A stretch of DNA of 64,000 nt from Alphaproteobacteria bacterium (GCA_963667705.1 OY763937.1:515821-579820), one strand, 5' to 3'. Positions 47,749 to 52,802 are shown, counted from the stretch's first letter. Program-made: numbers and translations. The notes: generated by a model from the sequence alone, not told the origin.

Positions 47749-49974
47749 TCAACGTTTGCCGCCGAATCCGGCGAGTAAGTTGACGTCAGGGCTTTGATCA
47801 TTCAAGATCCCCGCCATTTCCTCGTGCGACGGGCCGTAGAATGCGCCACTGACGTGGTTGTCGTCATCCGAAAAGGCATTTCCGCTCACCCGTATGCCGT
47901 AGTAGAGTCTGGACTGCCGAAAGGGCTCGACTTTGTTCTCAATAGACACGGAAAGATCATCAAAGCGAACTGTGCCGCGCAGCCTCTCAAGATCGACTTG
48001 CAGTTCAGCGTTGCCGAATACGGGGGGCAACATTTTCTGTCCCAGATCGACGCCAAGCAGAGAGCCTGACCAAGTTGCAGTGCCCGTCAGGGCAGAGCTT
48101 TCTGCGAGACTCGTGCTCGGAGCGATGCCAAAGGCGTCAGCTCCTGCGCGGAGGCGGTCGACGAATTTGTCCTCGGCTGATAGCCAAAGAGTGCGTTGAA
48201 CTCCCGCACCCCAAGCACTGTAGCGGCCCCACGCGCCCCAGCCATAGACTTCCGGTTCAGATGCCGTGGTGGCGTCAAGGACTTCATATCCGATATCGGC
48301 AAGAAACGCGAAGTCGATTTCGGCAGGTACGCTTGGTACTGTTTCGCCGTCGGCGCAGGTGGCTCCGTAGCTCATGAGCGAATCGCAGACACCGAGATGC
48401 CCATAGTCGGGTGCGGCGCCGGGCGTGCCGGGCGCAACAGCCATCTTTCTCTCTTCAAACCACCATTGAAAGGGCACTGGTCGACCGTTGTTGGCCCTGG
48501 TTGCTTCCGGTCCCTCAAATGTATGGTTCTCGCGATTGATTAAGTGGTCTCCCGATGGTGCATCGATCAGAGTATTCCATCCACCGACCCCAAGTATGTG
48601 CCCGAGCTCGTGAGCCATTGCCCAGACACGGGTCATCGGATCATGGCCTAGAGCTTCGACTATCGGACCTAAATCCGGATACCTCACCCCTCCCCAAAGA
48701 GGCTGAAAATGGTTCACGTTGGGTCTCGTGGGCTGTGCAGGTGCGCCGGCCCAGACGCCGGGTTCTTCAAAAATAAAAACCAAGAGGCCGTCAACTGGCA
48801 CGTCTTGATTCAATGATACGTATTTCGGATGCGAGACATGAATACTGGTGCCCCGTTTGATCACATGCTCGTCAAATGTGTCTTTCAGACGCCACGACCA
48901 CAACTTTCCCTCGCGCTCCATCCCCGCGCGCATTAGCTCGGAGTCATAGCCGTGCACGAACCGAAAGTCGAACTCGATGTCGAGCGTTCCGGCCGGACCA
49001 CTCTTCCACTGTCCGTAGGTAATACCGTCTCTCTCACCGACAATATCGACACTCTCAGGCTGAACGTTACGGAATCGGACCCCGACATTGCCGGGATCGC
49101 CGTTGGCAACGTCGAGCAACGCGCGCAGATCTTGATTCCCTTCGGCGACATCCGACCGGCTGAGCCCCGACAACGCAAGTGCGGAGCGCAATGTTTGTGG
49201 ATCGTTCCAGTGGTCCAGCAGATCTTCGGCCGTGGGATTGTCTTGGGCATGACCCCAGATCGTGACGCTAGGCGTGCCGCCGGTTCGCACGTAACTCGCC
49301 GTCCCGTCAGCGGCGACCGTCACCACGCAGGCCGCACCGTCCGCAGGGCACGAAACCACAACGTTGCCCAACTCCTCCGCGGCGCCGGGCGCGACCATGA
49401 TCTCACCCGCTGCAAGACCGTGACCCGGGGGCAGGTTCCACGACCCGTACGCGGCCATGACGGTGGGCACACCGCCGGTCCGCTCGTAGCTCGCCGTGCC
49501 GTCGGCCGCGACCGTCACCACGCAGGCCGCACCGCCCGCAGGGCACGAAACCACTACGTTGCCCAACTCGCGCGAGGCGCCCGGCGCAACCCTGATCTCG
49601 CCCGCCGAAAGGCCGTGACCCGGGGGCAGGTTCCACGACCCGTACGCGGCCATGACGGTGGGCATACCACCGGTTCGATCGTAGCTCGCCGTGCCGTTGG
49701 CCGCGACCGTCACCACGCAGGCGGCACCGCCCGCAGGGCACGAAACCACCACGTTGCCCAACTCGCGCGAGGCGCCCGGAGCAACCCTGATCTCGCCCGC
49801 CGAAAGGCCGTGGTGCTCCGGAAGCCCAATAGTCACTCCGCTCGGGCTTGGATCGGTCGGCTCAGTCGGTTGAGGCTTCGATACAACCGGATTGCCTCCG
49901 CCGCCTCCACCACAAGCGGCAAGAACCATCACGCAAAGTGCGGCGGCCAGAGCAGCAAGTATGCGTGTACGCAT
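47749..49974 (-). CDS. Surface lipoprotein with three 65-aa tandem repeats, an HExxH zinc-metalloprotease motif and a TbpB/fHbp-like C-terminal beta-barrel signature
   Basis: Lipobox LAAC. Repeats GHGLSAGEIRVAPGASRELGNVVVSCPAGGAACVVTVAA.GTASY.RTGG.PTVMAAYGSWNLPP occur three times. HELGHILG motif. The C-terminus GAFYGPSHEEMAGI...FGGKR is like the TbpB/LbpB/fHbp C-terminal strand. AGGAGG RBS before the ATG at 49974. Confidence 0.75.
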   Translation of the reverse strand: MRTRILAALAAALCVMVLAACGGGGGGNPVVSKPQPTEPTDPSPSGVTIGLPEHHGLSAGEIRVAPGASRELGNVVVSCPAGGAACVVTVAANGTASYDRTGGMPTVMAAYGSWNLPPGHGLSAGEIRVAPGASRELGNVVVSCPAGGAACVVTVAADGTASYERTGGVPTVMAAYGSWNLPPGHGLAAGEIMVAPGAAEELGNVVVSCPADGAACVVTVAADGTASYVRTGGTPSVTIWGHAQDNPTAEDLLDHWNDPQTLRSALALSGLSRSDVAEGNQDLRALLDVANGDPGNVGVRFRNVQPESVDIVGERDGITYGQWKSGPAGTLDIEFDFRFVHGYDSELMRAGMEREGKLWSWRLKDTFDEHVIKRGTSIHVSHPKYVSLNQDVPVDGLLVFIFEEPGVWAGAPAQPTRPNVNHFQPLWGGVRYPDLGPIVEALGHDPMTRVWAMAHELGHILGVGGWNTLIDAPSGDHLINRENHTFEGPEATRANNGRPVPFQWWFEERKMAVAPGTPGAAPDYGHLGVCDSLMSYGATCADGETVPSVPAEIDFAFLADIGYEVLDATTASEPEVYGWGAWGRYSAWGAGVQRTLWLSAEDKFVDRLRAGADAFGIAPSTSLAESSALTGTATWSGSLLGVDLGQKMLPPVFGNAELQVDLERLRGTVRFDDLSVSIENKVEPFRQSRLYYGIRVSGNAFSDDDNHVSGAFYGPSHEEMAGILNDQSPDVNLLAGFGGKR
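49230..49812 (-). repeat. 195-bp tandem repeat, about 3 copies, inside the metalloprotease-lipoprotein gene
   Basis: Direct reading of the DNA and translation. Confidence 0.7.
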
Positions 49975-50205
49975 TTGGTTGCCTCCTGACTTTAGGCCCG
50001 AATCTGGCAGTCGGGTGCAGCGCCTATGACCTGATCGTGAAAATACACCAACACACCATCTCAGGCGTCGGAAAACCAGACTTCTGTACTCTACTACTTC
50101 AACCATTTAGCCGACCTGACCAACTTGAAGTGCGGGTTCTCTGCTGAACTTGGCCTAGATTCAGCTCGTTAAGCCAGCAGCCAACAATGCCACTTGCAGA
50201 GTGGA

Positions 50206-51111: not shown

Positions 51112-51260
51112 CTGCAGAGTCCTCCCTTGCTTGATGAAAAATTCGTGTGAAGTATTGCCCGGCGCTTAGCTGTAACCTCTCAACAAAGGACAATATCAAT
51201 GGGTTTACGCGCCGCGCAATGTCGACCCGTTGCGCCGAACAATGGCCAGAGACGCCCTCG

Positions 51261-52802
51261 CTATTGCCTATGCGCCGCGAAGGCACCAGCGAAACCACTG
51301 TCGCCGTCGGTTGCGCCAAACGTGCCGGCCACGCCCGTCGGGTGTTCACTCGGAGTGGCACCATTGCCAAAAAAGGCAGCACCCCATTCACCATACCACG
51401 CTGCATCATCCGTCGCTCTGCCGGTGGAGGCAAATCCCACCACGGGCATGGCAGAAGAAATTGATGTTGTCTCTAAGCCCAGTTCCTCTGGAAAGGAAGC
51501 GGGCACGCTTGCGAAATTATGGACCCGCCCTCTCAGCGTACCTACATCTGAAGTTGTTCCGAAGTCAGCCACCACCTCGACGTCAGCATCGAAGGACCCT
51601 GCATTTGCACCGCTCGCGGACGAGCTCTCGAAATACATTCCGATCGCCTTGCCAGCATAACTGGCAGTACCAGTCAAGTACTCGATGTGGCTGGGGTTGA
51701 AGGGGTCTCCCCCACCTGCAAGAACTCCAAACTCCGCAGAATCCACGCCAGCAGCCTCGTCCGGCAAATAGAGCCAGTATCCGAAGCTCAGGTAATTGAC
51801 GGTTGATACCTCTCTGGAAGAAGTCGAATTAAGGGTAACCGTCGGGCTACCATCGGCCGGTGTGAATGCCACGCTGTTACCGTACGGATAGTACCCTTTG
51901 GGTGGCGGCGACACCTCAAGCCAGCACGGATCGCTAACGCATGTGAATGTTCCCTGAGTGCCGTCCAAAGAACCCTCAAGTCCACCGCCCGGAACACGAA
52001 CGCCTTGCCAGTCGTGATCTGCGAGAAGATCCGGAATGTCATCGAGTACGATGGTCCGGTCCAAGCGCCCGTATCCGACCCAGGGTTCCTCTAATGCCAC
52101 TGAACGATCCGCGTCAGTCACCAGATTGACTGTCAACTTTCCGCCGGTGGTGTATTGCTTTGTTCCTTCGAGCAATTGCCATTGACTGCCCAGACTATGA
52201 TCTTCGACCAGCTCTGACTCGATTACGGAACGCCCCTGCCACTGCACGAGACTATTCTGCCTGCTAGCCGCGCTGGTTGACGAAAACACAAACTCCAGGG
52301 CGCCTAAGCTGTTGTGATATGGAGCCGCTTGCGCGTACCGAGGTGGTGAAGTTTGCACGACCATTTCATGACCAGAGCCAGAAATGGGTATCGCAACTTG
52401 CCTGATGTTACTGGTTCGGCCCTCGGTTAGGTTAAAGACAGATGCTACTGCGGCGGATGTGGCCAGTGACATCTCGATGTCAGCGCCCCCGTCGTCAGAA
52501 CCTCCGTTTCCGGTGTCGCCACCGTCTGCATCGCTTCCGTCACCTGAACCGCCGTCGTCAGAACCTCCGTTTCCGGTGTCGCCACCGTCTGCATCGCTTC
52601 CGTCACCTGAACCGCCGTCGTCAGAACCTTCATTTCCGGTGTCGCCACCGTTCTCGCCACTACCGTCGCCTGATCCGCCATCGCCAGCACCCCCGTTGTC
52701 GCCGCCCCCCGGGGTTCCTGTATTTAGACCGCCGCCGCCACAGGCGGCAAGAATCAGCATACTCAACGTGGCGGCGACGGCCGCGAAGTGGCGTACATGC
52801 AT
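51261..52802 (-). CDS. Lipoprotein with a G/D/S-rich repetitive linker and a TbpB-like C-terminal signature (surface lipoprotein type)
   Basis: Lipobox LAAC. (GGSGDGSDADGGDTGNGGSDD)x3 linker. C-terminus AAFFGNGATPSEHPTGVAGTF...GAFAAHRQ. AGGAGA RBS before the ATG at 52802. Confidence 0.7.
   Translation of the reverse strand: MHVRHFAAVAATLSMLILAACGGGGLNTGTPGGGDNGGAGDGGSGDGSGENGGDTGNEGSDDGGSGDGSDADGGDTGNGGSDDGGSGDGSDADGGDTGNGGSDDGGADIEMSLATSAAVASVFNLTEGRTSNIRQVAIPISGSGHEMVVQTSPPRYAQAAPYHNSLGALEFVFSSTSAASRQNSLVQWQGRSVIESELVEDHSLGSQWQLLEGTKQYTTGGKLTVNLVTDADRSVALEEPWVGYGRLDRTIVLDDIPDLLADHDWQGVRVPGGGLEGSLDGTQGTFTCVSDPCWLEVSPPPKGYYPYGNSVAFTPADGSPTVTLNSTSSREVSTVNYLSFGYWLYLPDEAAGVDSAEFGVLAGGGDPFNPSHIEYLTGTASYAGKAIGMYFESSSASGANAGSFDADVEVVADFGTTSDVGTLRGRVHNFASVPASFPEELGLETTSISSAMPVVGFASTGRATDDAAWYGEWGAAFFGNGATPSEHPTGVAGTFGATDGDSGFAGAFAAHRQ
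52491..52679 (-). repeat. 63-bp tandem repeat x3 encoding the G/D/S-rich linker
   Basis: Direct reading of the sequence. Confidence 0.6.

Follow-up and report, generated by a model that had tools for sequence, protein, structure and literature searches.

Three TbpB-fold lipoproteins on an integrative mobilizable element of a Rhodospirillales genome, probable cargo of an unlinked Slam translocon

Work on the cargo of Slam (type 11 secretion system, T11SS; DUF560) has been almost confined to animal pathogens, whose Slam cargo comprises adhesins and binders such as receptors for transferrin, haem and complement factors; for Slam1 of Neisseria, unlinked pairs of translocon and cargo are the norm. 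Slam homologues are found in all classes of Proteobacteria, about 52% of the Slam genes adjoin a lipoprotein gene, and an eight-strand C-terminal barrel is common to the Slam-adjacent lipoproteins (Hooda et al., 2017; PMC5449769). The cargo follows a plan of variable N-terminal effector, beta 'pedestal' and C-terminal eight-strand barrel, frequently with lipidation, and cluster-1 T11SS genes are found together with markers of mobile islands; the predicted cargo types are haemophilin-, TbpB-, fHbp- and LbpB-like proteins, a type with a disordered N-terminus, Pls-like proteins, and surface proteins of Sphingomonas and Psychrobacter (Grossman et al., 2025; PMC12282271). Here we analyse three lipoprotein genes, designated P1, P2 and P3, from a stretch of 64,000 nt of an Alphaproteobacteria bacterium (GCA_963667705.1, OY763937.1:515821-579820; hereafter, the window). 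They are intact open reading frames (ORFs) that fill the interval 47749-52802 on the minus strand:

47749..49974, minus strand: P1, 741 aa; three 65-aa repeats, a metzincin-like core and a predicted C-terminal TbpB-type barrel
50206..51111, minus strand: P2, 301 aa; a single-lobe (handle plus barrel) lipoprotein
51261..52802, minus strand: P3, 513 aa; an acidic linker (disordered) followed by a helix, a beta-rich domain and a lobe of the TbpB type

The trio are new members of the known class of TbpB-fold lipoproteins, and we interpret them as outer-membrane lipoproteins of the TbpB/HpuA/hemophilin/fHbp structural class, which is handled by Slam, that constitute an accessory cassette, placed at the distal end of an element of about 44 kb. 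In our estimation, with a probability of roughly 0.6, they are the cargo of an unlinked Slam/T11SS translocon and are spread on mobile DNA of a Rhodospirillales genome. We infer Slam dependence and surface exposure from the class to which the proteins belong; what we observed directly are features of sequence and fold.

Compared with the C-lobe of TbpB, HpuA and hemophilin/HphA (Slam/T11SS substrates from Neisseria, Kingella, Haemophilus, Acinetobacter and Vibrio), the trio show a sequence identity of only 12-20%, have no adjacent TonB-dependent receptor or Slam, and come from a metagenome-assembled genome (MAG) of Rhodospirillales and not from an animal pathogen; additionally, P3 has an extra beta-rich region of about 250 residues and an acidic tether of 80 residues. 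NHBA and fHbp from Neisseria, and PmSLP/fIbp from Pasteurella, bind mammalian heparin or complement regulators, whereas we found no evidence of such ligands for the trio. The order of effector, pedestal and barrel, the lipidation and the location on mobile DNA are shared with the cargo described by Grossman et al. (2025), and P3 resembles their type with a disordered N-terminus. Conversely, the trio are mobile without their translocon, and P1, together with about 200 representative clusters, carries a metzincin-like domain, whereas none of the approximately ten architectures in that work has an enzyme as effector. Beyond what was known are, then, the enzyme-like effector of P1, the translocon-free carriage at the end of an integrative mobilizable element, and the host range (Rhodospirillales and other MAGs). 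A preliminary description of this DNA had presented the lineage as one in which such proteins are not classic, which is overstated given the distribution of Slam homologues cited above.

We took the start of P1 at MRTRIL, which yields the product of 741 aa; the reading frame stays open up to 50106. P1 and P3 are identical to database proteins P0106 and P0282, whose source contig encodes proteins that cluster at ≥90% identity with proteins of 'Rhodospirillales bacterium'. A chance motif or spurious ORFs were rejected because of the conservation of the families, the identical gene calls on record and the confident models. In a scan of the trio for promoters and terminators, the number of sites was no higher than in shuffled sequences.

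Signal peptides and lipoboxes were judged by reading the translations, without a signal-peptide predictor. All three N-termini contain a basic n-region and a hydrophobic core, followed by a lipobox (LAAC, LSAC and LAAC, respectively) within residues 18-22, in the contexts VLAAC-GGGGGG (P1), ALSAC-GGGSN (P2) and ILAAC-GGGGL (P3). The residue after the lipobox Cys is Gly, not Asp, and it starts a stretch rich in Gly/Ser/Pro or Gly/Asp/Ser, so that the lipoboxes and Gly/Ser linkers first reported for the three proteins are borne out. The products end in ...VSGAFYGPSHEEMAG...LLAGFGGKR (P1), ...GGFFGNDAAEVGG...VGAFGGRRQ (P2) and ...AAFFGNGATPSEHPTGVAG...GAFAAHRQ (P3); the C-terminal motif proposed previously is present, with the corrections that P1 ends in KR instead of RQ and that P3 has FAAHRQ.

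For P2 and P3, the C-terminal barrel was established from predicted models, whose confidence is given below as pLDDT (predicted local distance difference test). The features of both proteins are:

51046..51111, minus strand: P2 signal peptide and lipobox (…AMALSAC; Cys22)
50632..50970, minus strand: P2 handle domain, with the conserved motif FGSWAxGxVSPNPGF
50209..50622, minus strand: P2 C-terminal barrel (Pfam stretch 164-300; modelled strands 169-300)
52740..52802, minus strand: P3 signal peptide and lipobox (…MLILAAC; Cys21)
52494..52739, minus strand: P3 disordered Gly/Asp/Ser-rich tether (pLDDT below 50 over residues 1-103)
51708..52430, minus strand: P3 beta-rich middle region, the C-terminal part of which is the handle of the lobe
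51264..51677, minus strand: P3 C-terminal eight-strand barrel (strands 379-392, 400-413, 421-431, 440-448, 454-459, 470-478, 490-498 and 502-512)

P2 matches PF01298 (TbpB_B_D) with 44.3 bits, above the cut-off of 26, and its Cys22 is conserved in at least 90% of the P2 family. The AlphaFold2 model, built from an alignment of 30 sequences (A1), has a pLDDT of 85.4 and a predicted template-modelling score (pTM) of 0.80, and consists of a handle plus a barrel, with residues 1-44 disordered (pLDDT below 50). A Foldseek comparison of this model with the PDB retrieved 70 matches at E<=1e-3; the best was the C-lobe of meningococcal TbpB (5kkx; E 4e-9, TM-score 0.63 on the target), and the 50 of these 70 matches that were listed are all TbpB, LbpB, HphA/hemophilin, HpuA, NHBA or fHbp.

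P3 has no match in Pfam, PF01298 included, or in NCBIfam, and its profile matched nothing among the PDB sequences, so that a fold search was needed instead; 13 of the 39 P3-family members do match PF01298 at E<0.1. The AlphaFold model of P3 (pLDDT 79.7) has a helix spanning residues 105-123, then a region rich in beta structure (133-364), and closes with eight strands (379-512). In the models of P2 and P3, an eight-stranded antiparallel C-terminal barrel is preceded by a beta handle, and the closest structures in fold searches are TbpB, LbpB, HpuA and haemophores. The acidic tether of P3 carries 63-nt repeats at 52486-52697 (repeat family D3) and is one repeat unit shorter in a 93-97% identical copy from a related locus (L001, 8362-9852); the length of the tether therefore varies with the number of repeats.

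The terminal barrel of P1 is well supported by sequence profiles. P1 reaches 24.2 bits against PF01298 (E 5e-5), just below the 26-bit cut-off; 37 of 39 relatives match this family at E<0.1, and the profile of the P1 family matched TbpB chains from the PDB on GGFYGPxxEEMAG...FGGKR (E 1.7e-4). Whole-length profile comparisons among the three families gave alignments confined to the signal peptides or the final strands. With the families trimmed to their C-terminal 150 residues, the profile of P2 aligned with that of P1 (probability 92.7, E 6e-8, 121 columns) and with that of P3 (probability 85, E 7e-7), and the trimmed profiles of P1 and P3 gave no alignment in global mode. Consequently, the TbpB/fHbp-type barrel termini of the preliminary description stand, by model and fold search for P2 and P3, in neither of which the fold lacks the barrel, and by profiles only for P1.

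The preliminary description did not mention the HExxH metzincin-like domain of P1 or the three 65-aa repeats that precede it. The features of this protein are:

49912..49974, minus strand: P1 signal peptide and lipobox (MRTRILAALAAALCVMVLAAC; Cys21)
49263..49847, minus strand: P1 tandem repeats, three units of 195 nt (65 aa), repeat family D2
48205..49242, minus strand: P1 central metzincin-like domain, about 340 residues
48598-48612, minus strand: HELGH, within the metzincin-like domain
48397-48399, minus strand: invariant His526, within the metzincin-like domain
48367-48381, minus strand: SLMSY Met-turn, within the metzincin-like domain
47752..48132, minus strand: predicted P1 C-terminal barrel of the TbpB_B_D type, from profiles

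A lipobox-like motif is found in 33 of 39 members of the P1 family. The 195-nt units, with 88% and 73% identity in a repeat search, encode a pattern with two Cys each (GHGLxAGEIxVAPGAxxELGNVVVSCPxxGAACVVTV...) that corresponds to no Pfam family and recurs in some members of the P3 family (hhalign probability 98.2). Judged by its sequence, the central domain follows the metzincin pattern with a Met-turn like that of serralysins and astacins. In the alignment of the family, H455, H459 and H526 are invariant, E456, S532, M534 and Y536 are nearly so, and the Gly at +7 (HExxHxxG) is kept in most members. P1 thus resembles metzincins (serralysin/astacin, MMP/karilysin, snapalysin and fragilysin) in its HExxHxxG helix and invariant Glu; likewise, as in serralysins and astacins, the S-[IL]-M-[AS]-Y turn of the family (S532-x-M534-x-Y536) is followed by a conserved C-terminal helix. 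The family gave weak, sub-threshold matches in Pfam to Peptidase_M10, Reprolysin_4, M7 and DUF4953, and 30 of its 31 weak matches among PDB sequences are metzincins. Proteins with this type of domain are from about 400 to 1750 aa long and make up a small family, with 207 clusters at 50% identity in a set of 1.84 billion representatives; a tblastn comparison of P1 with the plasmids in PLSDB gave no match. P1 has the look of a protease tethered to the cell surface, and it would probably degrade extracellular or host-matrix protein.

The trio lie at one end of an integrative mobilizable element, of which the following features were annotated:

9600..53450, no strand: integrative mobilizable element, about 44 kb, with the trio at the end opposite the integrase
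9600..9614, plus strand: weak candidate attachment (att) core CGGAGCGAGCGTCCG, with 14 of 15 bases equal to 53425-53439
9668..10981, plus strand: P4-type tyrosine integrase (Arm-DNA-bind_3, Phage_int_M, Phage_integrase)
32404..36735, minus strand: TrwC-type relaxase-helicase, from a domain scan of ORFs
42999..44975, plus strand: type IV coupling protein (T4CP; T4SS-DNA_transf, TraG-D_C)
45779..45991, plus strand: AlpA-family excisionase/regulator, from a domain scan of ORFs
53425..53439, plus strand: weak candidate att core CGGAGCGAGCGCCCG, 11 bp inside the synteny break with L001

The element also contains YAcAr and SSB genes, and none of the scanned ORFs of the window is a mating-pair-formation gene (VirB-type); integrase, relaxase and coupling protein in the absence of such genes define an integrative mobilizable element. 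Its GC content is 62-69%, versus 70-74% in the flanks. At third codon positions (GC3), values are 0.94-0.96 for chromosomal genes, 0.80-0.92 for the backbone of the element and 0.49-0.65 for the trio, whose composition is therefore foreign even to the mobile element. In L001, the P3-P2 module shows 95.6% DNA identity to the window and adjoins an SSB/YAcAr/TrwC backbone with only 84%. This locus lacks an 8-kb segment (41936-50040, with T4CP, AlpA, P1 and an ORF with CCHC repeats described below) and is otherwise collinear up to about 53450, where homology ends and different chromosomal genes follow. From this comparison, the trio are inside the element, and it suggests that the ends of the element are exchanged as modules. 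Integrase, relaxase, T4CP, AlpA, the synteny with L001 and GC3 thus support the earlier view of the trio as cargo of a mobile element.

A search at the ends of the element yielded no convincing long direct repeat and no tRNA gene, and the att repeat is only a candidate because chance 11-mers were equally frequent in the same search. Like other elements of its kind that combine a TrwC relaxase with a T4CP and a P4-type integrase, this one has the integrase at one end, AlpA, relaxase, T4CP and SSB genes, and distal cargo. Unlike them, it has no tRNA gene at its ends and only the weak 15-bp candidate att, and its cargo is a polyketide synthase (PKS)/RND cluster plus the lipoprotein trio.

On the reading of the trio as Slam cargo, P1, P2 and P3 would be exported by Sec, lipidated at the lipobox Cys (Cys21, Cys22 and Cys21, respectively) and transferred by Lol to the inner leaflet of the outer membrane. 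There, the C-terminal eight-strand barrel would be recognised by a Slam whose gene lies at another chromosomal site, and this Slam would flip the proteins to the surface, where each would be displayed on its flexible Gly-rich tether. The payloads would be different: a metzincin-like zinc peptidase behind three Cys-containing repeats in P1, a minimal handle-plus-barrel putative binder in P2, and a beta-rich domain on an acidic tether of 80 residues in P3. If P1 is indeed exported by Slam, type 11 systems can display enzymes too; and if the trio work after transfer, a mobile element can alter the bacterial surface without carrying a translocon, and compatibility between cargo and translocon becomes a factor in horizontal gene transfer. 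With three dissimilar payloads, related barrels and two candidate Slam genes (in loci L009 and L014, see below), the trio constitute a test set for the rules of recognition by Slam.

Homology searches gave families of 29 (P2), 74 (P3) and more than 329 (P1) proteins, almost all from metagenome assemblies, with named relatives in Rhodospirillales, Alphaproteobacteria, Defluviicoccus, 'Deltaproteobacteria' and one Bryobacterales MAG. The barrel lipoproteins are usually grouped, two to four per locus, and most of the sampled loci, among them L002, L010-L013, L015 and L016, contain them among integrases, relaxases or transposases. A link with Slam was found on two large contigs, L009 and L014, in which the genes for P0185 and P0181 have a PF04575/TPR_Slam gene one to three genes upstream, in the order lipoprotein, Slam, lipoprotein of 938 or 1068 aa, P0185 or P0181, and S8 peptidase lipoproteins. 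Both proteins share 50% identity with P1, combine the metzincin core with two barrels of the P3 type and a terminal one of the P1 type, and adjoin further lipoproteins that end in ...GFGGKR; the barrel types of P1 and P3 are therefore genetically linked to Slam elsewhere, which is indirect support for the use of a Slam by the trio.

Other observations concern these relatives. The S8 (subtilisin-type) peptidases of L009 (13419-18228) and L014 (13763-16042) have lipoboxes and C-termini of the form ...W(R)xxF, which resemble the signature of outer-membrane proteins; these loci therefore combine several surface proteases. In L013 (10001-12423), an 80%-identical P1 homologue is split into an ORF of 694 aa and another of 94 aa with the barrel end, among transposases, integrases and T4CP, corresponding to a frameshift pseudogene or an assembly error. 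Locus L003 (9132-9905) contains a P2-type homologue with 44% identity, on a contig of 23.7 kb assigned to the bin 'uncultured Bryobacterales' (Acidobacteriota), which, if the binning is right, places this homologue outside of the Proteobacteria, where T11SS is known. Contig names in the hifiasm-meta style and the sponge-style name of one Defluviicoccus MAG (RHO2_bin_2) suggest that the P1 family may be tied to the microbiomes of sponges or other aquatic hosts; a search of the literature library used retrieved nothing on the trio proteins in sponge symbionts or on protease-type T11SS cargo.

Several results weigh against the trio being Slam cargo or P1 being a metzincin. As the preliminary description already noted, there is no Slam gene in the window: no scanned ORF matches PF04575, and the best tblastn match of two Slam proteins, taken from metagenomic loci related to this one, had an E of 4. 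Slam was within 10 kb in only two of about 14 sampled contexts, both of them from 'Deltaproteobacteria' MAGs, that is, from another class, and with a longer subfamily at 50% identity; furthermore, none of the sampled loci has a P2-type barrel beside Slam. Scores against the NCBIfam model NF041636 ('Slam-dependent surface lipoprotein') were 25.5 bits for P1 and 31.4 bits for P2, with a cut-off of 80, and P3 had none; because this model is an equivalog for one subfamily, failing it excludes that subfamily only. The marine cluster-3 T11SS, mainly from Rhodobacteraceae/Roseobacteraceae, rarely co-occur with barrel cargo (PMC12282271), so that a matching translocon may be missing from a marine Rhodospirillales genome. 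As for P1, it matches no peptidase family significantly in Pfam, NCBIfam or PDB sequences and, unlike metzincins, it does not have the canonical third zinc ligand, His/Asp at +11 (HExxHxxGxxH/D), an invariant His being found instead 67 residues downstream; also unlike in metzincins, its domain shares one polypeptide with a TbpB-type barrel and a lipobox.

With these points in mind, we would extend the preferred reading only tentatively, and rather against the odds, to a general scheme in which integrative mobilizable elements spread 'cargo-only' T11SS/Slam cassettes between unrelated symbionts that live side by side (Rhodospirillales, 'Deltaproteobacteria' and perhaps a Bryobacterales MAG), each cassette plugging into whichever Slam its recipient possesses, and in which the P1 family would be the first enzymatic type 11 cargo, a surface-tethered metzincin protease.

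Part of the same evidence favours a different view, in which the trio are TbpB-fold lipoproteins that do not use Slam and either remain on the periplasmic side of the outer membrane or take another route to the surface, the barrel being a stable scaffold. The lack of a Slam gene in the window, the NF041636 scores below cut-off and the scarcity of barrel cargo with cluster-3 T11SS agree with it, as does the fact that most sampled relatives, including a plainly chromosomal P1 homologue (L017) and the relative in L008, have no Slam within 10 kb. Considering the linkage of the P1 and P3 barrel types to Slam in L009 and L014, we regard this view as unlikely, if a serious one.

Less probable still, the trio could be the lipoprotein halves of bipartite receptors of the TbpB/HpuA/hemophilin type, which would capture iron, haem or some other metal and deliver it to a TonB-dependent receptor whose gene lies elsewhere. 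The nearest structures (TbpB, LbpB, HpuA and haemophores) and the minimal haemophore-like size of P2, with just a handle and a barrel, are consistent with such a role. However, there was no TonB-dependent receptor in the scanned ORFs of the window or in the Pfam lists of 14 related loci, nor TonB/ExbBD or haem genes in the window or beside the sampled relatives, the one exception being an ExbB/ExbD pair at the border of L017, which is unrelated; the P2-family alignment shows no conserved pair of His/Met/Cys residues of the kind typically found at haem or metal sites; and P1 has an enzyme-like domain instead of a binding lobe. A nutrient receptor in the style of TbpA/TbpB is therefore not indicated by the surroundings of the trio or its relatives, and the nutrient capture or immune evasion proposed in the preliminary description finds no support here.

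Finally, it is very improbable that the trio serve the element itself as TraT-like lipoproteins for surface exclusion or mating aggregation, as their position inside the element, near T4CP and AlpA, and the recurrence of their relatives next to relaxases and integrases might suggest, in view of the lack of mating-pair-formation genes, the codon composition foreign to the backbone, the absence of P1 from the otherwise related element of L001, the occurrence of relatives in plain chromosomal and Slam-linked loci, and a fold that is that of a TbpB-type binder and not of TraT.

Other features of the element were also apparent. A 232-bp stretch upstream of P3 (52995-53227 in the window) is found in L001 on both sides of an inserted DDE transposase (5555-6018 and 7937-8170), and is far too long for a target-site duplication. 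Beside the integrase, the region 12008-14430 (plus strand) encodes an archaeo-eukaryotic primase domain of the type found in TOTE conflict systems (E 3e-100), with an overlapping or following ResIII/DEAD helicase. A biosynthetic and efflux cargo block occupies 15381-31802 (minus strand) and comprises an SDR/sulfotransferase fusion, an RND pump with its membrane-fusion protein, a B12-binding radical SAM enzyme and a type I PKS of 2351 aa (KS-AT-DH-ER-KR-ACP). Lastly, an ORF of 137 aa at 46984-47397 (plus strand) contains five 28-aa repeats similar to CCHC 'zinc knuckles' (CxHCGSxxHxxxxCPHD; period of 84 nt); it matches the Pfam family zf-CCHC_3 with an E of 4.6e-4, below the cut-off, and has a GC3 of 0.48, like the lipoprotein trio.

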